NCBI GenBank assembly: GCA_964492835.1
Contig: CAZBLC010000001.1
Location: 19,596 to 83,595 of the forward strand
Reading direction: 5' to 3'
From: an uncultured Candidatus Saccharibacteria bacterium
GTDB taxonomy: Bacteria > Patescibacteriota > Minisyncoccia > Phycocordibacterales > PALSA-1337
DNA: 64,000 nt
In this document: in pieces, positions 686-62,171 of the stretch
Numbering within the stretch: the first letter of the stretch is position 1
How the letters are laid out: every line of letters begins with the position of its first letter
Made by a program: the position numbers and the translations under genes
The notes under the pieces: generated by a model
What the model was told of the DNA's origin: nothing
The model's database searches: none
The model's input: the letters and a program-made list of their open reading frames with translations, nothing else

Positions 686-1987
<1,302 letters not shown>

Positions 1988-7858: not shown

Positions 7859-7867
7859 GATAATAAG

Positions 7868-16128: not shown

Positions 16129-16155
16129 TTCATTATTATTTTATATATATTGACA

Positions 16156-16872: not shown

Positions 16873-16910
16873 GTATTTAAATGGTATTACTTAATATGAG
16901 TAATTTATAA

Positions 16911-18678: not shown

Positions 18679-18702
18679 GTTATCAAACTATACTAAATCA
18701 GA

Positions 18703-41496: not shown

Positions 41497-41500
41497 AATA

Positions 41501-41890
41501 TTATTGTTTCTTAGAATGCGAATAAATTTTCTCGACTTCAGCAAGAAGTTCAGAAGGTATAGTCGTAGCCTTTATTATATACCCATCTACGTTTAATTTC
41601 TTTGCTCGAGCTATATCATCAGGGAGACCTTGGTTTGTAAGCATGATTACAACTGTCTTTTTAATTAAATTCTCTTTCCTTAGAGCAGTAAGTAATTCAA
41701 TTCCATCCATTCCAGGCATGATCAAATCTAGTATTAGTACGTCTGGTTCCATTCCTCCCTTCAACACTTTCAATGCTTCTTCTGTGGTTGAACATGTATG
41801 CACAGAATGTTTAGCATTAGTAAACTTAGTGATGTACATATCAAGAAGAAACTTATCATCATCTACAAAAAGTACATTTAATGGTTTCAT
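41501..41890 (-). CDS. Single-domain CheY-like response regulator receiver (PilH-like)
   Basis: VLFVDDD...DVLILDLIMPGMDG...KPF receiver motifs. 129 aa, no output domain. Confidence 0.8.
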   Translation of the reverse strand: MKPLNVLFVDDDKFLLDMYITKFTNAKHSVHTCSTTEEALKVLKGGMEPDVLILDLIMPGMDGIELLTALRKENLIKKTVVIMLTNQGLPDDIARAKKLNVDGYIIKATTIPSELLAEVEKIYSHSKKQ

Positions 41891-41891
41891 A

Positions 41892-43613
41892 TTATAGTTT
41901 ATTTACTTCTTCAAATGGTATCTTTCTCTCGAATGCTTTAATCATCGCATCCTCCTTAATTGAGAGCATTCCCTTTTGTCTAAGCAGTCTACTTATCTCA
42001 AGTTCAGTAGGACTCTTTAGAATTACACTCTCTATCTCCTTGTCCATTCTAAATGCCTCAAACACAGCCATACGTCCTCTTGTTCCCTTAGGACAATCTG
42101 GAGTTGGATCAATACCATATACAGTATCCTTAAATGGAATATCTCCTTTGTACTGTTCTGGTAGATCTGAGAATTGCTTATCAATTATCATTTTTATACT
42201 TCCATCAACTGGTATTGGTTTACCTGAATTTGGAGGTAGCATAGATACAAGTCTCTGAGCGATAGCTAGAACAAGAGTTGGTGCGATAAGGTAAGGATCC
42301 ACACCCATGTCGATAAGACGAGGGATGACACCAGCTGAGTTGTTGGTGTGGAGTGTAGAGAATACCAAGTGTCCTGTTAGAGCAGCTTGTACAGCTAGCT
42401 GAGCAGTCTCCTTGTCTCGGATCTCTCCGATCATGATCACATCAGGGTCCTGGCGTAGTGTTGTTCTAAGTCCAGATGCAAATGTATACCCAATCTCAGC
42501 ATGCACCTGAGACTGACTTACCCCATCCATGTTGTACTCGATAGGGTCTTCGAGAGAAAGTACGTTCATTCCCTCCTTATCAACTTCATTCAACATAGAG
42601 TACAGAGTTGTAGACTTTCCAGATCCCGTAGGTCCAGTAATTAGGATTAGTCCGTATGGTCTAGCTATCGCCTCTTTAACCAATTCTAGATTCTTTGGTG
42701 TAAGTCCGATCTCATCGATCTTCTTTACTCCCTTTTCTTGATCCAAGATACGCATCACGACTTTCTCTCCATAATATGCTGGGAATGTAGATACACGGAA
42801 GTCTATCTTTCTTCCATCGATACGTGCAGAGAATCTACCGTCTTGAGGCTTTCTCTTTTCATCAAGCTTCATGTTACAAAGCACTTTGATACGAGCAACA
42901 ACCGCATTGTGTACTTGCGGTGGTAGTACTAGACTTGTATTAAGTGTTCCATCAACACGGAAACGCACTCTAATCTTGTCACGCATATGCTCAATGTGCA
43001 CATCGGATGCATTTCCCTCAGTTGCATAACGAACGATAGTTGCCACAATCTTAACAACCGGAGCATCTTCTATAATTACAGTATTCTGCTTCTTGTCATT
43101 CGTAGTCTTTGCATTCTTTAGATCTACAGTACTGTCCTTATCAACAGACAATACAGACTCTAGTTCTGTAAGAGCCTTAGATACTTCTCCTCCAATTCCT
43201 TTATATGACTCTAAAACTTTTTGGTAGTCATCAATAGTTATTAAAAATACTTTGTATGGAACATTACCCTTTGAAGCAATGAAGTTTAGAGCATCTCGAG
43301 CTTCTATATTATCTGGGTTAACTATACCCACTTCAAGTACTCCTTCACTTAGACCTATCGGTACGAACTTATAGTGTGCAGCTGATTCTTCTGGTATATA
43401 GTCTAGAGCTTCAAATGGTACTGTAGTCTCACCTAAACTTCTTGTAGGTATGTTAAGTAGCTCTCCACGTGCAGCAAGTATATCTTCAGGATGTACTCCC
43501 TTTTCAATCAATACTTGATCAAGATTCTCACCGTCTGCAGTAAGTTTCTTTATCTCAGTTATATCATCTTTTGTTAAAAGATTTTTGTTTAAAAGAATAT
43601 CTGTAACACTCAT
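41892..43613 (-). CDS. pilB: Type IV pilus assembly/extension ATPase (GspE family) with N-terminal T2SSE_N domain
   Basis: Walker A GPTGSGKST, Asp box, His box GHLVFSTLHTN. 573 aa. Confidence 0.92.
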   Translation of the reverse strand: MSVTDILLNKNLLTKDDITEIKKLTADGENLDQVLIEKGVHPEDILAARGELLNIPTRSLGETTVPFEALDYIPEESAAHYKFVPIGLSEGVLEVGIVNPDNIEARDALNFIASKGNVPYKVFLITIDDYQKVLESYKGIGGEVSKALTELESVLSVDKDSTVDLKNAKTTNDKKQNTVIIEDAPVVKIVATIVRYATEGNASDVHIEHMRDKIRVRFRVDGTLNTSLVLPPQVHNAVVARIKVLCNMKLDEKRKPQDGRFSARIDGRKIDFRVSTFPAYYGEKVVMRILDQEKGVKKIDEIGLTPKNLELVKEAIARPYGLILITGPTGSGKSTTLYSMLNEVDKEGMNVLSLEDPIEYNMDGVSQSQVHAEIGYTFASGLRTTLRQDPDVIMIGEIRDKETAQLAVQAALTGHLVFSTLHTNNSAGVIPRLIDMGVDPYLIAPTLVLAIAQRLVSMLPPNSGKPIPVDGSIKMIIDKQFSDLPEQYKGDIPFKDTVYGIDPTPDCPKGTRGRMAVFEAFRMDKEIESVILKSPTELEISRLLRQKGMLSIKEDAMIKAFERKIPFEEVNKL

Positions 43614-43617
43614 AAAA

Positions 43618-43935
43618 TTAATTTACTGGTACGAACGGATTAGCACGACCAACATTCTGCTCTGGTATTGCAATTGTATAGTCTACAAGCGACTGGTATA
43701 CCGCACTCTTAAAGATTGAATCATCAATCTTTAATGAACTTATCTGATTAAGTAGGTTAACAATTCTCTGGCTTGATGCTTGTGCATCACCAGCCTCAAC
43801 TGATCCTTCAGTTGCAAGTGATGAGATTGATACATCACTTGGATTACCTTTGAAATAGAAGAAGAGACCTAGAGCTACTACTACGATAGCTATTAGTGCG
43901 AAGAATGTTCCTTTTGATGGTGTTTTTTGTTGCAT
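43618..43935 (-). CDS. Small single-TM protein in the pilus operon (PilP-like position), hypothetical
   Basis: N-terminal TM FFALIAIVVVALGLFFYF. 105 aa. Sits between pilO-like and pilB. Confidence 0.35.
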   Translation of the reverse strand: MQQKTPSKGTFFALIAIVVVALGLFFYFKGNPSDVSISSLATEGSVEAGDAQASSQRIVNLLNQISSLKIDDSIFKSAVYQSLVDYTIAIPEQNVGRANPFVPVN

Positions 43936-43936
43936 A

Positions 43937-44488
43937 TTATTGTTTTAGCCAAAATGTCTTAACCTCTACTCCATAATCGAAGTTTCCATTCTCACCTGCT
44001 TTCAAACTAATCTTAGATACCTGCATTATTCTAAGACTCACTTCCAAATCTCTTAGGAAGTTTTGGAATGTTTGATAGTCAGTACTTAGATCAAATGACA
44101 TTGTAACTGTATTGTATTCACCGCTCGACACAAAACTTGTATCCTCACTCTTTGATGCTTCTTTATTAGCTGTACTTGTCTTTACGTTCTTTATTGAAAT
44201 ATTGTGTCTAGCAGCTATACCGTTTAGGTCTATTATTAATCTAACGTTATCAACGTTATCAGGAACAATCTTATCAAGTCTCTCCTGATCTTCAGGATCA
44301 ATCTTGTTATATGCAGCTAGTACTTGATCTCTCTTCTTGATCAACTCTTCAGAATTCTTTAATGCTGTCTTATATTCACTGTTAACAGCCATAACAGCAC
44401 GCACCTTATCAATCTCCACACGGGTAAAAGTAAAATATATACCTATTGATAGAATTATTAGTATTAAAGGTGTAGCATTCTTATTCAT
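43937..44488 (-). CDS. pilO: PilO-like pilus inner-membrane alignment protein
   Basis: N-terminal TM, coiled-coil, then a periplasmic domain. Operon position. Confidence 0.5.
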   Translation of the reverse strand: MNKNATPLILIILSIGIYFTFTRVEIDKVRAVMAVNSEYKTALKNSEELIKKRDQVLAAYNKIDPEDQERLDKIVPDNVDNVRLIIDLNGIAARHNISIKNVKTSTANKEASKSEDTSFVSSGEYNTVTMSFDLSTDYQTFQNFLRDLEVSLRIMQVSKISLKAGENGNFDYGVEVKTFWLKQ

Positions 44489-44492
44489 ATAT

Positions 44493-45125
44493 TTATTGTG
44501 TATTACCTAACTCGCTATTCAATACCTTTTCATACAACACATCTGCAGCACTTATACTCGCTGTGAATGTAAATCCTACATTCCCTTTTGCATCAAGTGA
44601 TAGGTCTGAAAGTATTGGGTTCTTTAGAACCCGGTTCTTTCCAAAGCTTGATGATTTTCCAAATACATCACTCTGCCAAGCGATAGAACTGAAGCTATTA
44701 CCAAATCCTTTCATAGTAATCTTTAGATCTCCTGTTTCTATATCAGGAGCTACGAAATCAAAGCTACTGAATGTGATACCATCAGCTGTTAGAGCGTTGA
44801 TTATAGAGAACATCTCAACAACATCTATTTGTTTCTTAAGTAATTTGTTTCCTAGATCTATCTTTGTATTAGCCTTCTTTAATTTTTCAATTAAGGCTGA
44901 ATCGAATCTTTCTTCTGCTTTCTTTAATTCAACTCTATATTTCTCTTGATTCTTTGTTTGTAAATCTTTCCAAACAAATGTTCCTGCTGCAGCTACGATT
45001 GAGAGTATAAATATGATTACAGAGATAAACATAAATACACTAGTACCACCAGTATGATTGACTGATTTTTGATCCATCAATATTGGCTTCTTTGGAATGA
45101 ACGATGTTTGAAACTTAGTATCCAT
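44493..45125 (-). CDS. pilN: PilN-like pilus inner-membrane alignment protein
   Basis: Single TM after a short cytoplasmic N-terminus. Follows pilM. Confidence 0.5.
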   Translation of the reverse strand: MDTKFQTSFIPKKPILMDQKSVNHTGGTSVFMFISVIIFILSIVAAAGTFVWKDLQTKNQEKYRVELKKAEERFDSALIEKLKKANTKIDLGNKLLKKQIDVVEMFSIINALTADGITFSSFDFVAPDIETGDLKITMKGFGNSFSSIAWQSDVFGKSSSFGKNRVLKNPILSDLSLDAKGNVGFTFTASISAADVLYEKVLNSELGNTQ

Positions 45126-45143
45126 TGAGATAATTATAGTTGA

Positions 45144-46277
45144 TTAATCTATTTCAGACAATCGACGTAATGCACACCCTATCGCTACTGCAAATTCTGG
45201 ACCTGCTTGCTTGAATTGTTCTGATAGGAATGCTGGAGTTTCTAGTTTATTAAATGGATTTGCATATACTATTTCTGTTTGAAAACTTACTTTAGCTAAT
45301 TCTGTAAATCCTTTTAGCAGAACTCCTCCTCCTGTAAGGATTACCTTACTTATATTCTTGTTGTACTTCTTCTGATAGCTTAGCAGTGTTGCGTTTGCTT
45401 CATAGAATATATAGTCTAGGTTTACTGTTATTACTTCTGTTAACTCTTTGTACTCTGGTCCTCCCTTCATTCCATATACTCTCTTTAGATTCTCTGCTTC
45501 GTTTACTGTAAGACTCAGTGACTTTGATATTGCTAGAGTTATATCCTGTGATCCTCTATTAATGATGTGTGATGCTCTAAGTAATCCTCTCTCTAATATG
45601 TATAGCTTTGTTGCTTGTGCACCCATGTCTACAACCATTACAGCTTGTATACCCTGTTCTACCACTGCTCTTATAGAGCTAAACAACTCTATCTCATAGA
45701 ATGATGGTTGCAGTCCTGATCCTACAGCTATCGCTTGATAGTTATTAATATATTCATTATGTATTGCTACAACTAGTACATCTTGTGTTTGTCTTGGTGG
45801 TAGTTTTTCATCAGGCTTGTTTACAGGTGTTACATCATCAGGACCTAGGTTATCTTCTTTAGGTATTATTGAGTAATCCAACATAATCTCACTCATAGGT
45901 ACTGGTATATACTTACGTGCTTCTATGTTTATAACCTCCTGTATTTGTTTTTCTGGTACTGCAGGAATTGTTATGAACGTAATTAGACTTGATGATAGAG
46001 GTAAGGCTATACCACAAGAGTTTGTAGTAGTTTTAGCTTCTCTTAGAATATCTTTTAAAGCTTCAATTATCTTCTCCTTTGGTAAATTAGTTGATCTTCC
46101 AACTTCAATTTGTGCATATGGACCTAGAGCTAGTTCTCCATAAGTCTCGAGTACTGCTCTTCCTCTTTTCTTCCTTAATTGCACTACCTTTATAGCAGAT
46201 GAACCAATATCAATACCTAAAACACTTTGTCCTTTCTTTGAGAAGAGTGATGAAAATAGGTTATTAAGAAAATCCAT
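45144..46277 (-). CDS. pilM: Type IV pilus assembly protein PilM (actin-like ATPase fold)
   Basis: LGIDIGSSAIKVVQL phosphate-1-type motif. 377 aa. Confidence 0.8.
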   Translation of the reverse strand: MDFLNNLFSSLFSKKGQSVLGIDIGSSAIKVVQLRKKRGRAVLETYGELALGPYAQIEVGRSTNLPKEKIIEALKDILREAKTTTNSCGIALPLSSSLITFITIPAVPEKQIQEVINIEARKYIPVPMSEIMLDYSIIPKEDNLGPDDVTPVNKPDEKLPPRQTQDVLVVAIHNEYINNYQAIAVGSGLQPSFYEIELFSSIRAVVEQGIQAVMVVDMGAQATKLYILERGLLRASHIINRGSQDITLAISKSLSLTVNEAENLKRVYGMKGGPEYKELTEVITVNLDYIFYEANATLLSYQKKYNKNISKVILTGGGVLLKGFTELAKVSFQTEIVYANPFNKLETPAFLSEQFKQAGPEFAVAIGCALRRLSEID

Positions 46278-46323
46278 ACAAATATTATATCATACGACCA
46301 ATATTATAGTGTAGAATATGTGA

Positions 46324-46923
46324 ATGATTCGTAATATCCTCCAATATCTCATTGATTTCATCTTTCCTCCTCGAGAGGAAGAGGTTGTATTACGTATTAT
46401 ATCTATTACTCAATTTGAGTCTCAGGTGCCTAAGGCACTTAATGGTATATCTATATTCTCCTACAAACACTCTCTAGTTAAAGAGCTGGTTTGGCAGATT
46501 AAATACAGAAGGAATATGAGGGCTACTCACATGGCTGCGTATTTTCTTCATCGAGAACTAGTTAAATATGGAAATGTTACTCTAGTTCCTATACCCATAT
46601 CTAAATCTAGAAGAAAAGAAAGAGGTTTTAATCAATGTGAATTGATTATTGATTCTATACTTAAGTATGATACTAATAATATTCTCTCTAAAGACTATTC
46701 CCTACTTGTTCGTGACAAGGATATTGAGAAGCAGACTTTTAAGAATCGAGGTGAGAGACTAGAGAATATTAAAGGTATATTTAGAGTTACTAAATCTAGT
46801 AGTGATATATCTATAGTTATCATCGATGATGTAACTACAACTGGAGGTACGCTTGAAGAAGCAAAGAATTCTCTTCTACAAGCTGGGTTTAAAGATGTTA
46901 AGGTTTTGACTCTGGCACACTAA
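46324..46923 (+). CDS. comFC: ComF-family phosphoribosyltransferase-domain protein (competence ComFC-like)
   Basis: PRTase PRPP motif IVIIDDVTTTGGTLEEA. 199 aa. Lacks the N-terminal Cys zinc-finger seen in many ComFC. Confidence 0.7.
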   Translation: MIRNILQYLIDFIFPPREEEVVLRIISITQFESQVPKALNGISIFSYKHSLVKELVWQIKYRRNMRATHMAAYFLHRELVKYGNVTLVPIPISKSRRKERGFNQCELIIDSILKYDTNNILSKDYSLLVRDKDIEKQTFKNRGERLENIKGIFRVTKSSSDISIVIIDDVTTTGGTLEEAKNSLLQAGFKDVKVLTLAH

Positions 46924-47179
46924 CTGCCTTCTTCTTCCATAGACCAACTACAGAGTATAGATATACAAGTTCTAGTATACCTATTGTGTTGATTAGGAGT
47001 ATTGCGACAAACCATCCCTTTTCATCTCTCTTTGCTGCATGCCATAGTGCATAACCTTTCAAAGTTATTACTGCTAGCATTAAGACTAGTAGTACTAGTG
47101 AACTTAGGGCGAATAGCCCAAAACCTAGACCAAAGAATGCATTTGAATTAACTACACTTGCGAAATTATTTATCATCAT
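46898..47179 (-). CDS. Small two-TM membrane protein, hypothetical
   Basis: 93 aa with two hydrophobic helices. Confidence 0.4.
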   Translation of the reverse strand: MMINNFASVVNSNAFFGLGFGLFALSSLVLLVLMLAVITLKGYALWHAAKRDEKGWFVAILLINTIGILELVYLYSVVGLWKKKAVSVPESKP

Positions 47180-47202
47180 GGGTCTATTATAACACCAATC
47201 CT

Positions 47203-47760: not shown

Positions 47761-47767
47761 CATTCTG

Positions 47768-47854
47768 CGGAAAGAGCGAGATTCGAACTCGCGGTTCCAA
47801 TTAAGGAACGGCGGTTTAGTAAACCGCTGGTTTAAACCACTCACCCATCTTTCC
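47768..47854 (-). tRNA. Ser-type (class II, long variable arm, G73) tRNA; anticodon loop reads UUACUAA, apparent anticodon ACU
   Basis: Manual fold: acceptor GGAAAGA/TCTTTCC, 3-bp D-stem, anticodon stem GCGGT/ACCGC, variable stem-loop GTTCC-TTAATT-GGAAC, T-arm GCGAG-TTCGAAT-CTCGC. CCA not encoded. Confidence 0.7.
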
Positions 47855-47916
47855 ATACTTTCCCATATACTATACGGAAATTATGATACTTTTACAAATA
47901 TTGATAGTATATATGG

Positions 47917-49563
47917 ATGAATAACATATACGATTCTCTAAAGGATAGTTTTAAAGGTGATATAGATATATCAGAGCAAACTCTTACCAAATACTCTAAA
48001 GATGCTAGTCTTTTTGAGATTAAACCTAGTGCAGTTATGTTCCCTAAAGACAGTGAGGATATCAAGACTCTAGTTAAGTGGGTAAATGCAAACAAAGAAG
48101 CCAATCCTGAGCTATCCATCACCGTACGCTCTGCAGGAACAGATATGACTGGTGCTGCTATCGGTAGTTCCATCATACTTGATGTTACTCGATACATGAA
48201 CAAGATAATTGAAGTCACACCTGATCATGCAATTGCAATGCCTGGTTGCTATTACCGAGATTTCGACAAAGAGACAAAGAAATTAGACCGATATATGCCT
48301 GCATATACCGCTTCAAGAGAGATCAATGCAGTTGGTGGTATGGTTGGTAACAACAGTGGTGGAGAAAAGAGTATTAAGTATGGTAAGACGGAGAGATATA
48401 TTAACTCACTTAAGATAGTTTTGTCTGATGGTAATGAATATGTTGTTAAACCACTCACAAAACAGGAATTGGAAGTTAAGATAAATCAGAATGATTTTGA
48501 AGGAAATCTATACAAAGAGATATTTAAATTAATTAATGATAACTATGAGGTTATATCTGGAGCAAAGCCTAAGGTATCCAAGAATTCTTCTGGTTACTAT
48601 CTCTGGAATGTATATGACAAAGAAAGTGGAAAGTTTGATCTATGTAGGTTGATTGTAGGATCACAAGGAACATTGGGTATAGTTACGGAAATAGATTTTA
48701 AAATCATTCCTTTTGAAACTTGTTCAAATATTCTAGCCGTATTCCTTCCCTCTCTGGATGATGTGAGTAAGTTAGTGAATGAAGTATTGCCTTTTAAGCC
48801 AGACAGTCTAGAGACCTACGATGACAAGAGTATGATACTTGCAGTTAAGTTCTTCTTCGATTTCTTTAAGGAACTAGGATTTGTTAGAGCTATCAAGCTT
48901 GGTATGCAATTTGTTCCAGAGACATTTATGCTACTTACAGGTGGTGTGCCTAAGATGATATTAATGATTGAGTTTACTGGTATTAGTGAAGAAGAGGTTA
49001 AGGCTAAGTTGATTGCAGTACGTGATCATATTAAGCATTTTGGATTCCATATGCATTTAGCTCATTCTACAGCTGAGGCTGATAAGTACAGACAGATTAG
49101 ACATGAAAGTTTCAATCTACTTAGAAAGCATTCTAAAGGAAAGCGTACAGCCCCCTTTATAGACGACATAATAGTTAAGCCTGAGTATTTACCCGAATTT
49201 CTTCCTAAAGTTAAAGCACTACTTGATGAATACAAGTTAAGCTATACCGTACAAGGACACTTGGGTAATGGTAACTTCCATATCATTCCTCTTATGGATC
49301 TTAAATCTCCCTTCTCTGCTGATGTCATACTAGAATTGTCTGGAAAGATATATAGTTTGGTAGCACAATACCATGGTTCAAATTCTGCAGAACACAATGA
49401 TGGAATTATACGAACTCCATACCTGACACAACAGTTTGGTGAAGAAGTTGTAAGTATATTTAAGAAGACTAAATATATATTTGATCCATTAAATATTTTA
49501 AATCCTGGGAAGAAAGTAGGTGGTAGTTTTGATGATATTAGAAATGCGATAAAGAGTGTGTAA
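47917..49563 (+). CDS. FAD-linked oxidase (GlcD/D-lactate dehydrogenase family)
   Basis: FAD_binding_4 region VRSAGTDMTGAAIGSSIILD. 548 aa. Confidence 0.85.
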   Translation: MNNIYDSLKDSFKGDIDISEQTLTKYSKDASLFEIKPSAVMFPKDSEDIKTLVKWVNANKEANPELSITVRSAGTDMTGAAIGSSIILDVTRYMNKIIEVTPDHAIAMPGCYYRDFDKETKKLDRYMPAYTASREINAVGGMVGNNSGGEKSIKYGKTERYINSLKIVLSDGNEYVVKPLTKQELEVKINQNDFEGNLYKEIFKLINDNYEVISGAKPKVSKNSSGYYLWNVYDKESGKFDLCRLIVGSQGTLGIVTEIDFKIIPFETCSNILAVFLPSLDDVSKLVNEVLPFKPDSLETYDDKSMILAVKFFFDFFKELGFVRAIKLGMQFVPETFMLLTGGVPKMILMIEFTGISEEEVKAKLIAVRDHIKHFGFHMHLAHSTAEADKYRQIRHESFNLLRKHSKGKRTAPFIDDIIVKPEYLPEFLPKVKALLDEYKLSYTVQGHLGNGNFHIIPLMDLKSPFSADVILELSGKIYSLVAQYHGSNSAEHNDGIIRTPYLTQQFGEEVVSIFKKTKYIFDPLNILNPGKKVGGSFDDIRNAIKSV

Positions 49564-50644
49564 TATGAAAACATTAAAGAAATATAGATTGATAATTCCA
49601 CTGACAATAGTTGTAATAGCTATTTTTACGTACGGTAAGTTTAATGCTCCGAAACCAGAACCCGTACCTGCTCCAGTTATAGTTACTGTTCCATATACTG
49701 GAAAGATATATCATATATTCTTCCATAGTCTCATTGTATATCCAGAACTAGCATTTGATGGCACACCTCATGCTCAAGGATATCAGGACTATATGATTAC
49801 TCGAGATGAGTTCTACAAGATACTTCCTAAGTTGTATTCAGATAACTTTGTTTTGATTAATCCAAATATATTAATCTCTACAACTACAACTGGTATATCT
49901 AGAAATACCCTTCTACTTCCAGAAGGTAAAAAGCCATTAATACTTTCTCTTGATGATTTAAACTATTACAAAGATCAAGATGGTCATGGTTTTGCCAACA
50001 AACTGGTATTAGACAAACAAGGTAGAGTTGCTACGGAGATAACTACTCCTGAAGGAAAAACTATTGTTACTCGTGATGGTGATATTGTCCCAATACTAGA
50101 TGACTTTATAGACCTACATCCTGATTTCTCTTGGAATGGAGCTAGAGGTGTTATAGCGGTTACAGGACATGAAGGAGTGTTCGGGTACAGAACGAACAAG
50201 GTTAATTCTGGTACGTACAAAAAGGATGTTGAGTCAGTAAAGAATATTGTAACCAGACTAAAACAAACTGGTTGGTCATTTGCTAGCCATAGTTTCTCTC
50301 ACCAACTACCATTCAGAGATAACAGTATTACACTCGATATGGTTAAGTGGGATACAGAGAAATGGGACAAGGAAGTTAGACCTCTTGTTGGTGACACTAA
50401 CATGTTCATTGGTCCATTCGGTCAGGTGTTTTCTGCAAATGATGAAAGAAGAAACTACTTAATCTCAAAAGGTTTCAATATGCTATTTGGAGTTGGTATG
50501 GATCTATATCAAGAATACTTCCCTACATACTTTGTAATGAACAGAGCTGATATAGATGGTATACGACTATTACAAACTCCCTGGCATCTAAAAGAGTACT
50601 TTAATGTTGAGGAAGTGGTGGACCAGAAGAGGTTTGTTAGGTAG
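49556..50644 (+). CDS. Membrane-anchored NodB/polysaccharide-deacetylase-like protein
   Basis: N-terminal TM LIIPLTIVVIAIFTY; LSLDDLNY (TFDD-like) and FASHSFSHQ (HSxxH-like). Overlaps the upstream oxidase by 8 nt. Confidence 0.5.
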   Translation: MCNMKTLKKYRLIIPLTIVVIAIFTYGKFNAPKPEPVPAPVIVTVPYTGKIYHIFFHSLIVYPELAFDGTPHAQGYQDYMITRDEFYKILPKLYSDNFVLINPNILISTTTTGISRNTLLLPEGKKPLILSLDDLNYYKDQDGHGFANKLVLDKQGRVATEITTPEGKTIVTRDGDIVPILDDFIDLHPDFSWNGARGVIAVTGHEGVFGYRTNKVNSGTYKKDVESVKNIVTRLKQTGWSFASHSFSHQLPFRDNSITLDMVKWDTEKWDKEVRPLVGDTNMFIGPFGQVFSANDERRNYLISKGFNMLFGVGMDLYQEYFPTYFVMNRADIDGIRLLQTPWHLKEYFNVEEVVDQKRFVR

Positions 50645-50694
50645 TCTATTATTTTAGATCACAATTAAACAAAGTTCTGTTCGCTTACTTTAAT

Positions 50695-51045
50695 CTATTG
50701 TCTATTTTTTAACCAGTGTTTAAGTCCTATTCCCCGAATATCATCCTTTTTTGCATACTTTTCTATTATATTCAATGATTTTTCTTTTATTTCTTGGCTG
50801 GGATTAAGCTTTTCTAAAAGATGTATGGCAGCATAGAGTTTAGTATCGTAATTTTCATAATTAAGAAGGCCAGCAAATTCTTCTGTACCACTACTACCAA
50901 AATTAGTACTAATTATATTTACAATTTCAATCAATCTTTTAGATTTATTGTTATGTAATTGTACTGATTGCTTGTCAGAGTAATTTGTATTAAAAAGTAA
51001 TTCAACTTGATCTTTGTATTCCTTTATAAGTTCTTGAATAGTCAT
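50695..51045 (-). CDS. Hypothetical small helical protein
   Basis: 116-aa ORF, no recognised motif. Lies between the deacetylase-like gene and the duplicated copy of that gene's 3' end. Confidence 0.4.
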   Translation of the reverse strand: MTIQELIKEYKDQVELLFNTNYSDKQSVQLHNNKSKRLIEIVNIISTNFGSSGTEEFAGLLNYENYDTKLYAAIHLLEKLNPSQEIKEKSLNIIEKYAKKDDIRGIGLKHWLKNRQ

Positions 51046-51067
51046 TTTATAAAATCATAACATATCA

Positions 51068-51129
51068 ATAGCGGAACCAGAAGGATTCAGATCCTCAAAG
51101 CTCTTAAGGGGCCTGCCTCATTAGCAAAA
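51068..51129 (-). pseudogene. Degenerate fragment of tRNA-Ser(GCU), 3' portion (~75% identity to 54690-54752)
   Basis: agcggaaccagaaggattcagatcctcaaagctcttaaggggcctgcctcattagcaaaaatg aligns with agcggaaacggagggattcgaaccctcggagcctttaaggggctcacatctttagcaaagatg of the intact tRNA. Confidence 0.6.
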
Positions 51130-51238
51130 ATGAACAGAGCAGATATAGATGGTATACGACTATTACAAACTCCTTGGCATTTGAAGGAATACTTTAACGT
51201 TGAGGAGGTAATCGATCAGAAGAGGTTTGGTAAATAGC
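51130..51238 (+). repeat. Direct duplicate (~85% identity) of the last ~106 nt of the 49556-50644 CDS, including its stop codon
   Basis: aacagagcagatatagatggtatacgactattacaaactccttggcatttgaaggaatactttaacgttgaggaggtaatcgatcagaagaggtttggtaaatag matches 50539-50644. Confidence 0.7.
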
Positions 51239-52162
51239 TTAATCATTCAATATGCACTTGTCATCAGAATCTATTTCTGACAGTGTGATCATAAAGTGAC
51301 TTGTGGTCTCTTTTGCACTAACATCTCGCATCAAATTAGCCGAATTAGTATGTATACCTATCGAAGGATTCCAGAAATCTAATTGTTTTGCTGTCTGTTC
51401 AAGTATCCACAAACATAGTGGACAATCACTTTGACTAGGGTTTTTTAGATTAAGTATTTCATCACTATTACCTGTACAAAATGACTTTGATGTTAGCTCA
51501 TCCATCACATTAGACTCATCCAGAGGCAGATAGTGCGAAAAGTCACTACTTATTACCAAAGCTACATTGTCTTGAACAATGATTGGTTTTAATATTCTAA
51601 GTATCTCCTCCCTTTGATAGCTACTTCCTCTTCCTTTCTGTGATACTACAATTGGTACCACCTCGGCATCAGGAATATAGTATTTAATGAATGGAATAAT
51701 TGTAAATATTCCATGTTCTAGAGAGAATAACTTAGATGAACCCATTATATCTTTTGAATTTAATATCTTTTCTACAACCTCGTTAGATATTAATGAATTG
51801 CCAAAATACGTTTCAAACTGCCCTTTTGATGTACAGAACATTTTAGAACAGTATTTGAAATGATCTGGTGATATTACTACAACCAGTTTAGGGTTAGATT
51901 TTGCAATAGACTTTATACCCAAAGCTATAGACTTAGATGCGACAAGGTGATGAGGCACAACCACTGCCTTTATCTCATCTTTTATCACCACATCTTTTGC
52001 TTGTACTATTCCATCTATAACAGCAAGATTAAGAGATTCATCATTTGCAATATATGATATATCTTTCTGATATATATCCCTAAACAAGATAATACAAGCG
52101 ACTATAGCAAGTATTACTGCTAGATATTTAGCTATTTGTCTCCAAGTAAATCTCTGAACCAT
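51239..52162 (-). CDS. Memo/AmmeMemoRadiSam-B-like (LigB-superfamily) protein with N-terminal TM anchor
   Basis: AVVVPHHLVA...VVVISPDHF...ISSDFSHY His-rich motifs resemble the Memo family. 307 aa. Confidence 0.4.
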   Translation of the reverse strand: MVQRFTWRQIAKYLAVILAIVACIILFRDIYQKDISYIANDESLNLAVIDGIVQAKDVVIKDEIKAVVVPHHLVASKSIALGIKSIAKSNPKLVVVISPDHFKYCSKMFCTSKGQFETYFGNSLISNEVVEKILNSKDIMGSSKLFSLEHGIFTIIPFIKYYIPDAEVVPIVVSQKGRGSSYQREEILRILKPIIVQDNVALVISSDFSHYLPLDESNVMDELTSKSFCTGNSDEILNLKNPSQSDCPLCLWILEQTAKQLDFWNPSIGIHTNSANLMRDVSAKETTSHFMITLSEIDSDDKCILND

Positions 52163-54669
52163 TTGTTATTAGTTGGCCATTCCTTCTTAGGCTTGTAAGT
52201 TATACTACTATCTCCTCCTTCGTCGGTATAGAAATTACTTTGCCAATCTTCATCTGTTAGTCTTTCATCAGTTATTGATTCATATTGAGAATATGTAAAC
52301 CCAACTGTTAATCTAGGACCGTTGATATCCTTAACTGCAACAAAGATTATTCTTGGAACTCCTGTTCCTTCTTCTAGAATTCCTCCATTCATATCTGTAT
52401 GTATATCAGCAACTACTGCAGTTCTCTTGTCTTTGATTGGAAGTATTGGACCTTCTACCGACTCAGGTAGTGATGATTTCATCTGTTCTACAAGATCAAC
52501 TCTAATTTCTTCCCATCGACTTATTGGATTTACAACACCACCTCTCTTAACCTCTGAATCAGGTGAGATAAATGATTCAGTACATTCTTTTGCTTGAGAT
52601 TCAGAATATCTCTTCTTTGTTATAACAGATTCGTTGAATGATGTATTCTCTAATTGAAGTTTTGTGTATTCTCTAATTTTGTTTAGGAGGTCTATATAGT
52701 TCTCAAGCTTTACTGAGTTTTTCAACTTAAGTCCTCTAGCATCATATTCAGCAAGTAGTCTTTTTGCTGTGTAGTACAAACGATCATATGCCTCAGCTTG
52801 TGGTTCAATATATCCCTTTGCTGGATTTGGAACAGGTATTAAATCACACTCATCATCTCCTCCACCACCCTTCTCTGCAAAAGATTGTTTAGCGTATAGG
52901 ATTGATGTATGACGTAATTCAGTCCAGAATCCTGAAGCGGTTAACAATGTTTTTGCATTCCATAATGGTGCCTGCATGAATTGAGGTAGACTTGATCTAT
53001 TTGTGTCTAGCCAGTTAAACAATCCAGACACAGTCCATAGTGAACTTGTATATAGATTACTCTTCCAATATTCTTCACTCCATCCGTCTGCTTCTTTCTT
53101 TAGTGCATCGTGAGTATTATCTATTGCCTGCTTGTAGTCGGAATAGAATGGTAGATCAGTAAATCTAGATTTAGCATAGTTTGATCCAAGGATTGACATT
53201 ATCTGCAATGAAGAAGCTTTATCTGATAATTTAACTCCACTCTCGTCCCCCTTAGTTAATCTACTTGTCCAATATGAATCTGGAATAAATTTTTGACTCA
53301 AGAAACGCATACCGGCTAGTGCATTTATCTCATCCTCTACTGTAACGTTGACCAGTGGATCTATGTTAACTGGCATTGCCTTTATCTTTGCTCCTGGCTT
53401 TCTCTTATTTAGATATTCAGTTAGAGCTTTTAAATCATTAGCCTTTGCATTTCCTAACTCCTTGTTTGCTGCAATATAGTCACTTACGTCTAGATCATCA
53501 CTTTCACCCACTACAAAAGAAATTAGTGATGAGAGTGATTCATAGTTTTTCTTAGACTTATCATTACTATCCAAAAGTCCTGCAATACCTACTGCGTAAC
53601 TAGTTAAATCATTACTTGCTAGCAGAAACGGTATTTGTTGATACCACTGTACTGCTCTAAAGTATTGTCTACGTATTGAGCTACTTGTATATGTTCCTCT
53701 TGGTTTAAAGAGAGTGAATGGTATTACCACTTCAACATCAGAAACTATTCTTTCGAATTCTTTCTCAAATATCTTTGGCTTTCCTCTTCCCTCTGATGCA
53801 CCATATACCTGCTTAAGATCTGCTAGTACAACGTCTAGACTTTCCTTATCTAGTTTTAGTGCTTCAACAAACTTACTAGCATTCTCATAGCTATCGATAT
53901 CCTTGTCCTTAGCAATAAATTCTTCTTGTAGGGTCTCAAGCGGAGTGCCATTTTTAGCACTCTCTGAATTCCAATAGCTATCTGCATCTATTGGCTTTGC
54001 TGAAGTTGATAGCAGAGTGTATGGTATTGCAAGATAGTTTCTAACCTTCTTCCACTTATTGATATCTGATTCTGTATTTGATTTCTTAAGGTTATTTGAT
54101 GCCTGATCATACATATCTTTTGTCATTGATTGGACACTGTCAAAAAGATACTTATTCTCTGTCTCCTTTAGTAGCTCAGCAGAGAGAGTTGAGAACAAAT
54201 ACATAGATATATCTGAAGATATAAATACGGAATTAGCCTGTGTTCTGTCTTTATAGTCATGTTTGCCAGAGATACCGCTATATAGTGATACGAATTCTCT
54301 ATTGTTGTCATAAACAGGAAGTCCGTCCTTTGCTAGGTTTGTATCTAGTATGTTTTTTACTACAAACTTATTACTCTCCAGGCTATCTATCTCTTCTTTT
54401 GAGAATTTAAAACCGTATGCCTTCTCTATATCAGGTATGTTCTTTATTTCAGATAATTTAAAAGGTTTAGAGATATCAGCATTAATCTTAATATCTTGCT
54501 TCACAAAATCTACTTTTGCTAATGGTGATTTAAAGATAACGGGGGCGCTAGAGTCTGGTGTAGTATTAGAAACATCACTAACTATAGTAGTATCTTTCTT
54601 TAAAGACATTACAATCGCCAATGCGATCAAAAGCACAACCAACATGTAAATTTTAAATTTTGTTTTCAT
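52132..54669 (-). CDS. Large (845 aa) signal-anchored extracytoplasmic protein of unknown function
   Basis: N-terminal MKTKFKIYMLVVLLIALAIVMSL. No catalytic motif recognised. 31-nt overlap with the downstream Memo-like gene. Confidence 0.5.
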   Translation of the reverse strand: MKTKFKIYMLVVLLIALAIVMSLKKDTTIVSDVSNTTPDSSAPVIFKSPLAKVDFVKQDIKINADISKPFKLSEIKNIPDIEKAYGFKFSKEEIDSLESNKFVVKNILDTNLAKDGLPVYDNNREFVSLYSGISGKHDYKDRTQANSVFISSDISMYLFSTLSAELLKETENKYLFDSVQSMTKDMYDQASNNLKKSNTESDINKWKKVRNYLAIPYTLLSTSAKPIDADSYWNSESAKNGTPLETLQEEFIAKDKDIDSYENASKFVEALKLDKESLDVVLADLKQVYGASEGRGKPKIFEKEFERIVSDVEVVIPFTLFKPRGTYTSSSIRRQYFRAVQWYQQIPFLLASNDLTSYAVGIAGLLDSNDKSKKNYESLSSLISFVVGESDDLDVSDYIAANKELGNAKANDLKALTEYLNKRKPGAKIKAMPVNIDPLVNVTVEDEINALAGMRFLSQKFIPDSYWTSRLTKGDESGVKLSDKASSLQIMSILGSNYAKSRFTDLPFYSDYKQAIDNTHDALKKEADGWSEEYWKSNLYTSSLWTVSGLFNWLDTNRSSLPQFMQAPLWNAKTLLTASGFWTELRHTSILYAKQSFAEKGGGGDDECDLIPVPNPAKGYIEPQAEAYDRLYYTAKRLLAEYDARGLKLKNSVKLENYIDLLNKIREYTKLQLENTSFNESVITKKRYSESQAKECTESFISPDSEVKRGGVVNPISRWEEIRVDLVEQMKSSLPESVEGPILPIKDKRTAVVADIHTDMNGGILEEGTGVPRIIFVAVKDINGPRLTVGFTYSQYESITDERLTDEDWQSNFYTDEGGDSSITYKPKKEWPTNNKWFRDLLGDK

Positions 54670-54689
54670 ATATTATTAATTATTCTAAG

Positions 54690-54777
54690 CGGAAACGGAG
54701 GGATTCGAACCCTCGGAGCCTTTAAGGGGCTCACATCTTTAGCAAAGATGGTCGTTAAACCACTCCGACACGTTTCC
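54690..54777 (-). tRNA. tRNA-Ser (anticodon GCU)
   Basis: Manual fold: acceptor GGAAACG/CGTTTCC, anticodon stem CATCT/AGATG, loop TTGCTAA, long variable arm GAGCC-CCTTAAA-GGCTC, T-arm GAGGG-TTCGAAT-CCCTC, G73. CCA not encoded. Confidence 0.85.
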
Positions 54778-54778
54778 A

Positions 54779-55840
54779 TTAAATCAACTTCTTTAAGAAC
54801 TTATTATTACCTGTACCAATTATTTTGAGGTATTTTGACACATCACTTTTGTTCTCTATTCTCACATCATTACCATCTTTTGTTATTCTTACACAAAACC
54901 CTAGTTTTATCAAAATATCCGCAACCGACATTAGGACTAATTTACTTTTACTTGTAAATGCAATCTTGTTATATACATACACCTTTTTACCAACTCTATA
55001 TGAATGCTTGAATACACAACCATCAGTATCCACCAGCCCTCTTACACAAGCTATCGATAGCTTGCTATCCTTCTTTATCCATTCTGGTATATCGATATTA
55101 TTCTTTATTTTGTTACCTGATTTAAGACCAATACTTTTACAGTAATCGACTAGATTCCTTCTATGTATAACTAAATCTACAGCTCTAAACTTCTTATGCT
55201 TATACACAATAGAATCAATACCGAATAAATCTTTAATTATTTTCTTTACATAAGTGACATATTCTTTATCAGCAACAGAATCTAGAGTTATTCTAACTGA
55301 ATAATTACTGATACTTCCATCTCCAATTATAATTCCAACGAATTCAGCAAGCTTCTCTGATTTAACAGGTATTAATATTTCTTTTCTATCGTAGATAGGG
55401 TTAATAGCATGTATACCCTTTTCATTCCACCATTTATACCAAGCGTCCTTTCTTTTTTCTTCATTACAAATACCGCCATACTTTTTAAATCTTACAGTTC
55501 CACCCTTTTTTCCTGCTACACTTAAATGATCTATCCATTTAATTACTTTGATATCCTTAGGTACAGAAATACCACTTCTCGTAGATAGTTCCAGTAGGGC
55601 GTTATGTGAAATTTTTCTTTTCTCCTTAGCCCAGAGATATATAGTTTTGTGACTGACACCAAATAGCTTCGACATTGATGAATACGACAATTTTAGCTTA
55701 TTCTTGCAAGCTAAAATGTATTTAGACTGTTGTCCTTTCTTGAATATCACCCTGTCTAATACATACGCTTCTGACATGGTTCTATTATACCATTTAAAAC
55801 AAAACACCTGATCAATCGACGCAGGTGTTCTAGACTTCAT
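54779..55840 (-). CDS. Free-standing LAGLIDADG homing-endonuclease-like protein (double-motif) with N-terminal helix-turn-helix
   Basis: Two LAGLIDADG motifs (GIIIGDGSIS and GLVDTDGCVF), N-terminal HTH (SYSSMSKLFGVSHKTIYLWAKEK). Stop codon 1 nt from the tRNA-Ser 5' end. Confidence 0.8.
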   Translation of the reverse strand: MKSRTPASIDQVFCFKWYNRTMSEAYVLDRVIFKKGQQSKYILACKNKLKLSYSSMSKLFGVSHKTIYLWAKEKRKISHNALLELSTRSGISVPKDIKVIKWIDHLSVAGKKGGTVRFKKYGGICNEEKRKDAWYKWWNEKGIHAINPIYDRKEILIPVKSEKLAEFVGIIIGDGSISNYSVRITLDSVADKEYVTYVKKIIKDLFGIDSIVYKHKKFRAVDLVIHRRNLVDYCKSIGLKSGNKIKNNIDIPEWIKKDSKLSIACVRGLVDTDGCVFKHSYRVGKKVYVYNKIAFTSKSKLVLMSVADILIKLGFCVRITKDGNDVRIENKSDVSKYLKIIGTGNNKFLKKLI

Positions 55841-58512: not shown

Positions 58513-58588
58513 TGGTGCGCGCGCCAGGGGTCGAACCTGGGACCGCTCGAGTATAAGTCGAATGCTCTACCAACTGAGCTACGCGCGC
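58513..58588 (-). tRNA. tRNA with anticodon UAU (Ile-decoding AUA by anticodon), CCA encoded
   Basis: Manual fold: acceptor GCGCGCG/CGCGCGC, D-arm GCTC-AGTTGGTA-GAGC, anticodon stem TTCGA/TCGAG, loop CTTATAC, T-arm CCAGG-TTCGACC-CCTGG, A73, CCA. Confidence 0.75.
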
Positions 58589-61752: not shown

Positions 61753-62171
61753 GGGGATGAAAGGCCTCGACAGTTGAGGTACTCAATATTGTGCATTGTA
61801 GAGCTCCGTCACCTCTTTAAAATGACGGAAATGTTAGATGCTAAATCAGCTATAACAAAGGCGAAGTCTACTGTGTCTCCATATTTTGGAGCTAATAGCT
61901 TTGCTTTCGCTTACGCAACAGTTTAATACTGTTCCCTAAACGACGTTCTACACTAGGTTTCGAAACTAGTGTTAGAGTGATATAACCTTCGAATTGGATT
62001 GTATTCACTTCCCTGCTTACAATCTGAAACTCTGGGAATCGCTTACATATATTTTGTTTACTTTATAGTATGTAAGTTAAAAGAGGGCGACCTCGCTAAA
62101 GTTTTCTATACAATGTAGATCCAATATTAGATTTCATCTGCACCCGAGTTCGATTCTCGGCATCTCCACCA
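61753..62171 (+). ncRNA. ssrA: Transfer-messenger RNA (tmRNA, ssrA)
   Basis: 5' GGGGATG pairs with 3' CATCTCC-ACCA. tRNA-like T-arm GAGTTCGATTCTC. Internal ORF ending in a TAA within hairpin ACAGT-TTAAT-ACTGT. Confidence 0.85.

Follow-up and report, generated by a model that had tools for sequence, protein, structure and literature searches.

A duplicated gene end beside tRNA-Ser(GCU), a probable scar of recombination between strains in a Saccharibacteria-like genome

How does the 3′ end of a gene come to stand twice at the same locus, the second time fused to a dead fragment of a tRNA gene? The stretch of DNA analyzed here (the window) is 64 kb of a metagenome-type assembly, in which the joint is known from the assembled sequence alone. 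The initial annotation reported a rearrangement scar next to tRNA-Ser(GCU), and read it as the footprint of site-specific integration into the tRNA. The scar is genuine, and its coordinates were right within 1-3 nt (Table 1). We reach a different view of its origin. With a probability of roughly 60%, the scar was made by recombination between strains in which one end was homologous and the other illegitimate, the type known as homology-facilitated illegitimate recombination (HFIR).

Table 1. Parts of the locus, in window coordinates, and the evidence that identifies each of them.
Feature	Position	Strand	Evidence
Deacetylase-like gene, polysaccharide-deacetylase superfamily	49556..50644	+	ORF, weak PF01522 match, homologues, synteny
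Repeat copy 1, last 35 codons and stop of the deacetylase gene	50537..50644	+	in frame
Spacer, 50 nt	50645..50694		between repeat copy 1 and small gene
Small gene, 116 aa	50695..51045	-	homologues, AlphaFold2 model
Decayed relic of the tRNA-Ser(GCU) 3′ part, anticodon loop to 3′ end	51071..51129	-	alignment
Novel joint, ATG	51130..51132		read directly from the sequence
Repeat copy 2, displaced deacetylase 3′ end	51130..51237	+	colinear with L068
Memo-like gene, 307 aa	51239..52162	-	PF01875, 1e-19
DUF3160 gene, 845 aa	52132..54669	-	PF11369, 1e-103
tRNA-Ser(GCU), intact	54689..54777	-	ARAGORN; Rfam, 52.7 bits
LAGLIDADG-type protein gene, free-standing, 353 aa	54779..55840	-	PF14528, 8e-15

The deacetylase-like gene is intact (359 aa in the public gene call) and ends in repeat copy 1. 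It has 1128 homologues across Patescibacteria, a member of which is labeled "peptidoglycan/xylan/chitin deacetylase" by one source, and its synteny is kept in all relatives. Positions 50536-50644 and 51129-51237 form an ungapped direct repeat with 86% identity over 109 nt (by blastn, 87.5% over 104 nt, E 4.8e-30), and this is the sole significant internal repeat of the window. Both copies are 108 nt long, from a Met codon (50537 and 51130) to a TAG stop (50644 and 51237), they have an exact run of 32 nt in common, and the C-termini that they encode differ at only 3 of 35 residues. The 35 codons of the second copy still form an open frame, disconnected from the rest of the gene. Its stop lies 1 nt from the Memo stop, as it does in the relative L068, and the sequence past the stop also matches L068.

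The other half of the scar is a piece of tRNA. On the minus strand, an ungapped alignment pairs 51071-51132 with positions 28-89 of the intact tRNA-Ser(GCU), a stretch that reaches from the anticodon stem as far as the 3′ end, with 46 of 62 positions identical (74%). The local alignment score is 30, compared with at most 15 for unrelated window sequence and 22 for the other tRNA-Ser gene; blastn-short gives E-values from 3e-8 to 3e-10; and the 19-mer of the tRNA 3′ end, allowing up to 3 mismatches, was found in none of 100 shuffles. Thus, both similarities, 86% over 109 nt and 74% over 62 nt, are real and well above chance. Relic and intact tRNA have the same orientation, with the relic on the 3′ side, so the geometry first described (an intact tRNA and a displaced 3′ fragment in direct orientation, bracketing a segment) stands. 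The relic is equally far from every tRNA-Ser(GCU) allele in the clade (46-48 of 62 positions identical) and carries at least 10 changes in 62 that are absent from all functional alleles. Its T-loop reads TCTGAAT instead of TTCGAAT, the consensus of that loop is lost, and the last pair of the T-stem is broken. The intact tRNA, on the other hand, matches the tRNA of L004 and of L068 at every position (100% identity), and it is a conserved anchor amid a variable region.

The homology of the relic continues through the ATG that begins repeat copy 2, so that the two homologies overlap in 3 nt, or in 4 if the preceding A is counted (AATG). The ATG belongs both to the anticodon stem of the tRNA, where the tRNA strand reads CAT, and to the Met codon of the deacetylase, and the joining at a microhomology that the initial annotation had noticed is correct.

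Is the stranded copy a decaying spare, or was it a coding sequence until recently? We polarised the private changes of each copy using L068 and L004. In statistics built on only 12-15 sites, copy 1 has 6 private changes, all at third codon positions (P = 0.0014), copy 2 has 6, five of them at third positions (P = 0.018), and the direct comparison of the two copies places 11 of 15 differences there (P = 0.0018). Neither copy has any indels or stops. This bias, together with the lack of indels and stops, implies that both copies evolved as coding sequence in sister lineages. Moreover, at 7 sites the two copies agree with each other and differ from both L068 and L004 (at 11 sites from at least one of them), which makes them sister alleles. 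On this substitution pattern, we take the two gene ends to be coding alleles from sister lineages that were united recently.

These changes bear directly on the simplest local mechanism, an in-situ tandem duplication from Met-327 to the tRNA anticodon, after which one of the cargo copies disappeared or was exchanged for other DNA and the leftover parts decayed. Such a duplication would yield exactly the observed joint of tRNA 3′ part and gene-end ATG, as well as the order of the parts. We nonetheless find it quite unlikely. The stranded copy has changed nearly only at third positions and as much as the functional one (6 vs. 6), and a non-coding spare should neither keep a codon bias nor match the rate of the functional copy. 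There is no similarity between 50645-51070, with the small gene, and 51238-54688, with Memo and DUF3160. And decay has gone much further in the relic than in the stranded gene end: at the relic's level of neutral decay, about 13 amino acid changes would be expected in the gene end, which shows at most 3 (P = 0.001). Because it has decayed further than the stranded gene end, the relic probably predates the joint, and it may be a leftover of an older integration event.

What do the relatives look like? In L068, L069, and L070, the deacetylase, Memo, DUF3160, and tRNA-Ser genes are contiguous, with a single gene end, no relic, and no small gene. Window 51130-54779 is colinear with 10976-14619 of L068; in fact, window 47765-50635 and 51130-54779 both map to one L068 stretch, and the difference between the window and the L068-type arrangement is a unit of 593 bp. 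The Memo-like protein is 72% identical in amino acids to its L068 orthologue, and the DUF3160 protein 77%, with next-best homologues of the latter at 66% or less. The DUF3160 gene begins 19 nt downstream of tRNA-Ser(GCU) and overlaps with the Memo gene. The pair of genes is also found in other CPR genomes, at unrelated loci. The type IV pilus genes of the window, at 40844-47194, are colinear with the T2SSE/PilM/PilO genes of L068.

Between deacetylase and tRNA, the cargo differs in every relative examined. The flanks of L068 and L004/L006 are 95-97% identical and their cargo is completely different, and their homology ends precisely at the deacetylase stop codon and at either end of the tRNA. 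L004/L112 lack Memo-DUF3160 and carry VanW in its place; L003 has its own displaced 19-nt repeat of the tRNA 3′ end, beside a GC-rich foreign stretch; and L001 has a large serine recombinase within the interval, to which nothing anywhere in the window is similar. Since close relatives with nearly identical flanks hold entirely different cargo, the locus is a recombination hotspot and, as far as these genome comparisons indicate, the clade has a hotspot for variable or foreign DNA on the 3′ side of tRNA-Ser(GCU).

This brings us back to integration, in which a mobile island at 51130-54689 would have entered the 3′ part of tRNA-Ser(GCU), regenerating the tRNA and displacing its original 3′ part. 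The anticodon stem-loop is a classical crossover position of tRNA-targeting integrases, and the fragment begins precisely there, in direct orientation on the 3′ side; the hotspot itself, with the repeat in L003 and the recombinase in L001, also speaks for it. We judge it very unlikely all the same. As first described, the bracketed segment contains only two genes, for the Memo-like protein and for the 845-aa protein that we assign to DUF3160, and neither an integrase nor a recombinase gene was found in it. Its cargo is ordinary chromosomal DNA with the composition of the backbone, and it is colinear with a relative in which both the fragment and the duplication are missing. The initial annotation had proposed searching related genomes for an empty site lacking the segment, and the comparison gives another picture: L068-L070 hold the bracketed genes, and L004/L112 have VanW there. 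The repeat pair is not the near-identical one that integration leaves, only 3-4 nt are common at the joint, and the intact tRNA is that of the relatives, not a chimera. Finally, the "island" terminates in a coding-constrained copy of a neighboring host gene. A fragment joined to a coding-constrained chromosomal gene end implies chromosomal DNA of a sister strain, not an element.

Could the joint be an artefact, a chimeric contig made of two co-existing strains? The source has the look of a metagenome-assembled genome, related populations are polymorphic at the locus, the L004/L006 genome is itself broken inside the deacetylase gene (with a 98% overlap), and the 32-nt run common to both gene ends offers a place to switch. 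A switch at that 32-mer would give one hybrid gene end, however, and not two complete ones. The joint of relic and ATG must be present in the reads, because it shares no k-mer with the rest of the window, and two copies that differ by 14% are not a collapsed repeat. We regard an artefact as highly improbable.

The 593-bp unit also contains the small gene, which starts 25 nt downstream of the relic. The initial annotation called it an orphan. A word-indexed search did find only the gene itself, but exhaustive HMMER recovers 105 homologues at E ≤ 1e-3, of about 120 aa and 30-42% identical, so the label has to be dropped. Its product is predicted to be a five-helix ARM/HEAT-like protein (AlphaFold2 model, mean pLDDT 95.6). 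The best match of the model among solved structures is 2i9c (RPA1889), with TM 0.76 and rmsd 2.5 Å over 114 columns, at 16% identity and a Foldseek E-value of 0.035. No Pfam family scored above threshold, there was no PHROG, phage, or plasmid match, and a profile search against PDB sequences gave nothing significant. The gene has a GC content of 0.28-0.29, compared with 0.34 for the window. Neither it nor the relic was found at the locus in any relative examined. The first ~15 nt of the spacer before it weakly resemble, by blastn, the post-stop sequence of the deacetylase in haplotype B (L004), which is weak evidence.

In the recombination between strains that we favor, the interval from the deacetylase to tRNA-Ser(GCU) would be a flexible islet of a Saccharibacteria-like lineage, its content swapped between strains by recombination anchored in the deacetylase gene, the tRNA, and RecG. 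The scar would record one exchange between two sister alleles with different cargo, the first with deacetylase, small helical-protein gene, and old tRNA relic, the second with deacetylase, Memo, DUF3160, and tRNA-Ser. One end of the incoming DNA would have recombined by homology, and the other would have been joined illegitimately at the 3-4-nt ATG, between the anticodon stem of the relic and deacetylase codon Met-327. The joint lies 108 nt ahead of the stop codon, which is why the gene ends of both alleles survive; one completes the deacetylase gene and the other is left stranded beside Memo. Most plausibly, this happened by the HFIR route, after natural transformation. Both copies have diverged symmetrically, as fits an HFIR donor that is a diverged relative and not the same genome.

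Which of the two alleles was the recipient? Either 593 bp with the new gene end, the small gene, and the relic entered an L068-type genome, or a piece of ~3.6 kb (old gene end, Memo, DUF3160, and tRNA anchor) entered a genome with the small gene and relic. We hold the two cases to be about equally likely. The second has the more classical HFIR geometry, and a single step would then account for the resemblance of the window to haplotype A on the left side of the tRNA and to haplotype B on the right side. Relative to L068, pS is 0.67-0.68 for Memo and DUF3160 and 0.43-0.60 for the flanks; since pS here rises and falls with pN from gene to gene, the difference does not decide the direction. No point of homologous crossover emerged, and across both the deacetylase gene and the FAD-oxidase gene the identity to L068 and to L004 stays level; a crossover in the tRNA, 100% conserved, would be invisible. 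In the collections, the species of the window has neither a donor nor a sister genome, and every window protein tested forms a singleton cluster at 90% identity. A parental haplotype with small gene and relic has not been seen.

What started the exchange? One proposal is a double-strand break by the LAGLIDADG endonuclease, repaired by copying from a sister allele, with the second end closed by microhomology-mediated joining. It is a mechanistic variant of the recombination just described and not an alternative to it, and as a specific trigger we rate it unlikely. The endonuclease gene abuts the tRNA in the window, with its stop 1 nt from the tRNA 5′ end, and also in L004/L112; it is an insertion relative to L068, which lacks it even though the L068 flanks are 95% identical to those of L004. 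It is far more diverged from L004/L112 (63% amino acid identity) than its neighbors are (86-90%), and the relic breaks inside tRNA sequence. Against these points, nuclease activity and target are putative (the similarity of the protein is to the endonuclease portion of V-ATPase chains that contain inteins), the relic seems to predate the joint, and the hotspot is also present in L001, L003, and L073, which do not have the gene. A broader version, which we offer as a long shot, has tRNA-Ser(GCU) as the hub of integrase-free cassette exchange in this Saccharibacteria-like family. A homing endonuclease encoded 1 nt from the tRNA would cut alleles lacking its gene, repair of the break would carry neighboring cargo between strains and swap cassettes on either side of the tRNA, and microhomology scars like the present one would be occasional by-products, as would relics of the kind found in the window and L003.

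If recombination between strains is the right reading, a duplicated gene end, an extra gene, and a dead tRNA fragment would be the ordinary outcome of strain exchange at a variable spot. How does this compare with known systems? One comparison is with genomic islands that tyrosine integrases insert into tRNA/tmRNA genes, in the sense of the Islander database (PMC4383910). Our locus resembles these islands in its intact tRNA, the variable DNA on the 3′ side, and the partial direct copy from the anticodon stem-loop. It differs from them in having no integrase, a repeat at 74% that appears older than the joint, syntenic chromosomal cargo, and an island end that would copy a neighboring host gene. 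Displaced "orphan" 3′ gene ends are also found downstream of rhs/cdiA-type polymorphic toxin genes, where a new 3′ end and a small downstream gene displace the old 3′ end, which is left as a fragment, much as here. In our case, the C-termini are nearly the same (3 of 35 residues differ), there is no toxin domain, and nothing points to an immunity protein as the product of the small gene.

A further comparison is with the flexible genomic islands or islets that lie beside tRNA genes in marine and other bacteria and are exchanged via their conserved flanks; to our knowledge, they are little described in Patescibacteria. The sharp boundaries at the anchors, the 95-97% identical flanks with different cargo, and the general scarcity of mobility genes are all alike, and the difference is that one exchange here left a visible illegitimate scar. 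For such a scar the model is HFIR in natural transformation, described for Acinetobacter baylyi, Streptococcus pneumoniae, and Pseudomonas stutzeri (de Vries & Wackernagel 2002 and Prudhomme et al. 2002, both summarised in PMC6382021). In HFIR, heterologous DNA has homology on one side and a microhomology of a few bases on the other, 3-10 bp according to the same summary and 3-4 nt here. The donor in our case would be a diverged relative, and the organism group is naturally competent, as PMC10187176 and PMC10633639 describe for Saccharibacteria; the type IV pilus genes in the window also speak for uptake by transformation. Unlike the experimental cases of HFIR, our scar is inferred from a natural genome, and its point of homologous crossover was not found. 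The 108-nt duplication of a gene end is unusual for HFIR, and it follows from the position of the joint.

The final 108 nt of the deacetylase-like gene (the functional copy) are repeated 593 nt further downstream, beside the Memo-like gene (the stranded copy; see table). The two copies align without gaps at 86% identity, and TAG terminates each. A comparison of the window with itself recovers this repeat (E = 4.8e-30), and no other internal repeat in the 64 kb reaches significance. Directly to the left of the stranded copy lies a relic of tRNA-Ser(GCU), whose gap-free alignment to the intact tRNA covers positions 28-89 of the latter, with 46 of 62 positions identical (E-values 3e-8 to 3e-10). 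Its local alignment score is 30; background sequence reaches at most 15, and the paralogous tRNA-Ser 22. Relic and stranded copy share the ATG at 51130-51132, which gives the joint a microhomology of 3 nt, perhaps 4. The duplicated gene end and tRNA fragment described in the initial annotation are thus borne out almost to the base.

Features of the region from tRNA-Ser(ACU) to the tmRNA gene in the window, and of related loci
Locus	Feature	Position	Strand	Remark
Window	tRNA-Ser(ACU)	47767-47854	-	long variable arm
Window	FAD-oxidase gene			before deacetylase-like gene
Window	deacetylase-like gene	49556-50644	+
Window	functional gene-end copy	50537-50644
Window	small gene	50695-51045	-	116 aa
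Window	tRNA-Ser(GCU) relic	51071-51132	-
Window	stranded gene-end copy	51130-51237
Window	Memo-like gene	51239-52162	-
Window	DUF3160 gene	52132-54669	-	845 aa
Window	DUF3160-Memo module	51239-54669
Window	tRNA-Ser(GCU), intact	54689-54777	-
Window	LAGLIDADG-type gene	54779-55840	-	353 aa
Window	small membrane-protein-like gene			between LAGLIDADG-type gene and recG
Window	recG			after small membrane-protein-like gene
Window	tRNA-Ile(UAU)	58513-58588	-
Window	tmRNA	61753-62171	+
L001	variable interval			6.9 kb, includes large serine recombinase
L001	large serine recombinase	15276-16643
L003	variable interval			DUF305 + TspO, 1.5 kb
L004/L112	variable interval			VanW, 0.9 kb
L072	variable interval			IGPS + PNPOx
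L005, L071, L073	variable interval			tRNA inverted, directly after deacetylase gene; cargo 0.2-7 kb between tRNA 3′ end and recG
L005	tRNA-Ser(GCU)	869-957		inverted
L071	tRNA-Ser(GCU)	11179-11269		inverted
L073	tRNA-Ser(GCU)	11146-11236		inverted
L071	FtsH gene with intein	15744-18977		1077 aa
L108	DUF3160-Memo module	6001-9557
L109	DUF3160-Memo module	6001-10304

The window is a bacterial chromosome segment of 34% GC that also carries type IV pilus genes, and its relatives (the L-numbered loci) are metagenome-assembled genomes labelled Candidatus Saccharibacteria or Paceibacteria (Patescibacteria/CPR). These keep the order tRNA-Ser(ACU), FAD oxidase, deacetylase, a variable interval, tRNA-Ser(GCU), recG, tRNA-Ile(UAU) and tmRNA, with further genes before recG and before the tmRNA. 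The content of the interval differs in each genome compared. In L068 and L004/L006, flanks that are 95-97% identical enclose entirely different genes: from the deacetylase stop to recG the sequences are unrelated except for a 100% identical tRNA. For this reason we call the interval between deacetylase, tRNA-Ser(GCU) and RecG a fast-turnover islet. In haplotype A (the L068 type), Memo-DUF3160 lies 3′ of the tRNA, and the 5′ side is short. In haplotype B (the L004 type), VanW lies 3′ and the LAGLIDADG-type gene 5′ of the tRNA, an arrangement confirmed by single contigs of independent samples. The window combines a left side of type A with a right side of type B. In the closest GTDB relative, two contigs (the end of L006 and the start of L004) split inside the deacetylase gene, at the equivalent of window 49911-50208, with a 309-nt overlap of 98% identity, which suggests strain heterogeneity at the locus in that population.

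In the relatives with an inverted tRNA-Ser(GCU), the orientation is reversed relative to both deacetylase and recG, and the cargo lies on the recG side, again the 3′ side of the tRNA. The serine recombinase of L001, with Resolvase, Recombinase and Zn-ribbon domains, is accompanied by a DUF5681 protein and an SDH-type ClpP-like protease, together probably a mobile-element remnant. Overlapping DUF3160 and Memo-like genes recur as a conserved two-gene module in several CPR genomes, where they occupy unrelated loci; L109 has a fusion of the Memo domain to a PGA_cap domain. In the window, the GC of both genes is at backbone level, and the small gene and the LAGLIDADG-type gene are richer in AT. The tRNA-Ser(ACU), with A at position 34, occupies the same position in all relatives examined (L001, L002, L003, L006, L019, L068, L071, L072, L073) and coexists with tRNA-Ser(GCU), the reader of AGY codons. 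In bacteria, A34 is unusual outside tRNA-Arg. The UAU anticodon of tRNA-Ile, also present in L003, L004, L005, L068, L071 and L073, suggests AUA decoding without a lysidine-modified tRNA. Finally, the tag predicted for the tmRNA is unusually long at 28 residues (AKSAITKAKSTVSPYFGANSFAFAYATV), and L005 and L071 have similar predicted tags.

In L068, L069 and L070 (deacetylase 87% identical in amino acids), Memo, DUF3160 and tRNA-Ser(GCU) come immediately after the deacetylase gene. Window 47765-50635 maps to L068 8195-11074 and window 51130-54779 to L068 10976-14619; since these stretches overlap, both window copies correspond to the single gene end of L068, relative to which the window has an additional 593-bp unit. 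It is the stranded copy that keeps the L068 context: as there, a 1-nt gap separates it from the Memo stop codon, and the sequence beyond its own stop is similar.

How the two gene ends have changed is informative about their origin. Third codon positions hold 11 of the 15 differences between them (P = 0.0018), and 9 of 12 changed codons are synonymous. When L068 and L004 are used to polarise the differences, six changes are private to the functional copy, every one at a third position (P = 0.0014), and six to the stranded copy, five of them at third positions (P = 0.018); at seven sites the window copies agree with each other against both relatives. That both copies have changed by the same amount and with coding-type substitutions, and that neither has acquired an indel or a stop, indicates that the gene ends are orthologous alleles that evolved in working genes of sister lineages and were recently joined. 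It argues against a tandem duplication in situ, a reading we find unlikely. It follows from this two-allele history that the simple L068 arrangement is not a secondary deletion from a window-like state. The split between window and L068 (dS about 1) is far older than the joint. An assembly chimera of two strains is highly improbable: a switch at a shared 32-mer would yield one hybrid gene end and not two complete ones, and the joint has no k-mer in common with other window sequence.

The relic has a different history. The window, L004 and L068 share a 100% identical intact tRNA-Ser(GCU), and the relic matches every clade allele at 46-48 of 62 positions, with at least 10 positions in states found in no clade allele. 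Its T-loop reads TCTGAAT (normally TTCGAAT), and the G53-C61 pair is broken. We rejected its assignment to any one allele type, as its similarity to all is alike despite states shared with L001/L005/L072 (e.g. the acceptor G). Had the stranded gene end decayed like the relic since the joint, about 13 amino-acid changes would be expected, and at most 3 are observed (P = 0.001); judging from these rates, we infer that the relic was no more than a dead fragment by the time the joint arose. An earlier event at the tRNA, perhaps a true integration, may have left it behind. The initial annotation had proposed such an event for the present arrangement, site-specific integration of 51130-54689 into the tRNA. 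Of the four features that define such an integration, three are missing: the repeat is not near-identical, and neither an integrase nor an empty site is found. L068-L070 instead hold Memo-DUF3160 contiguous with deacetylase and tRNA. This reading is very unlikely. A search of viral contigs for the tRNA 3′ half as a possible attP gave 34 matches, none like the relic; most are high-GC contigs from unrelated taxa with the conserved T-arm in common. A parallel exists in L003: 128 nt downstream of its intact tRNA lies a 19-nt repeat of the tRNA-Ser(GCU) 3′ end (8308-8326) with the acceptor variant found in other lineages. The surrounding stretch (8225-8456) has 51-56% GC versus about 30-35% for the genome and no Rfam family match, and looks like an integrated-element remnant.

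The small gene, which had been taken for an orphan, has 105 homologues at E ≤ 1e-3 in an exhaustive HMMER search; the contigs returned for their contexts are only about 1 kb long. Its protein gives a confident predicted five-helix ARM/HEAT-like model (pLDDT 95.6), which among solved structures matches the uncharacterised RPA1889 best (PDB 2i9c, TM 0.76). A search for a phage or plasmid origin gave zero matches, and an exact-protein look-up found no contig. That it is a remnant of the VanW gene, which has the same position in L004, was rejected for lack of similarity. A scan of 50400-51400 gave no promoters or terminators above shuffled expectation.

We favour, with a probability of roughly 0.6, inter-strain recombination with one illegitimate end at the islet beside tRNA-Ser(GCU). 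The ATG at the joint is too short for a recombinase core. Two directions, about equally likely, fit the data. In one, an L068-type genome would have taken up gene end, small gene and relic, with the anchor in the deacetylase gene. In the other, gene end, Memo, DUF3160 and tRNA would have entered a genome with the small gene and relic, anchored in or beyond the tRNA and replacing the DNA between relic and tRNA. A mosaic boundary marking the homologous crossover was sought in the deacetylase and FAD-oxidase genes, where the identity profile is flat. Memo/DUF3160 have a dS of 1.7 versus 0.6-1.2 elsewhere; in all fast-evolving genes here pS goes up together with pN, so that this higher synonymous divergence is confounded as evidence of direction. 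Searches for a donor or sister genome, scanning genome and metagenome contigs with the deacetylase protein, gave best relatives at 87-90% amino-acid identity, and every window protein tested is a singleton cluster at 90% identity.

An attractive trigger, if a rather unlikely one, would be a double-strand break by the adjacent LAGLIDADG protein, a putative nuclease. Its gene is free-standing, with a weak N-terminal HTH, and ends 1 nt from the tRNA-Ser(GCU) 5′ end, in place of the ~30-nt putative tRNA promoter region of L068 and L003. In L004/L112 it has 63% amino-acid identity versus 86-90% for neighbour genes, and L068, whose flanks are 95% identical to L004, lacks it. A LAGLIDADG domain also occurs in the intein of the L071 FtsH gene (the window FtsH has 631 aa).

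On the recombination reading, the scar is a clean natural case of strain-to-strain DNA exchange in Patescibacteria, whose natural competence has been demonstrated in the laboratory only of late. Saccharibacteria are described as naturally competent (PMC10187176 / PMC10633639). The islet is useful for strain typing and for picking a neutral insertion site in genetic work. The scar is a new example of known processes, and no new element, mechanism or system. Its joint is of the kind that homology-facilitated illegitimate recombination gives rise to, in which a homologous anchor on one side allows heterologous DNA to be joined at 3-10-bp microhomologies on the other (PMC6382021); the 3-4 nt shared here fall into this range.
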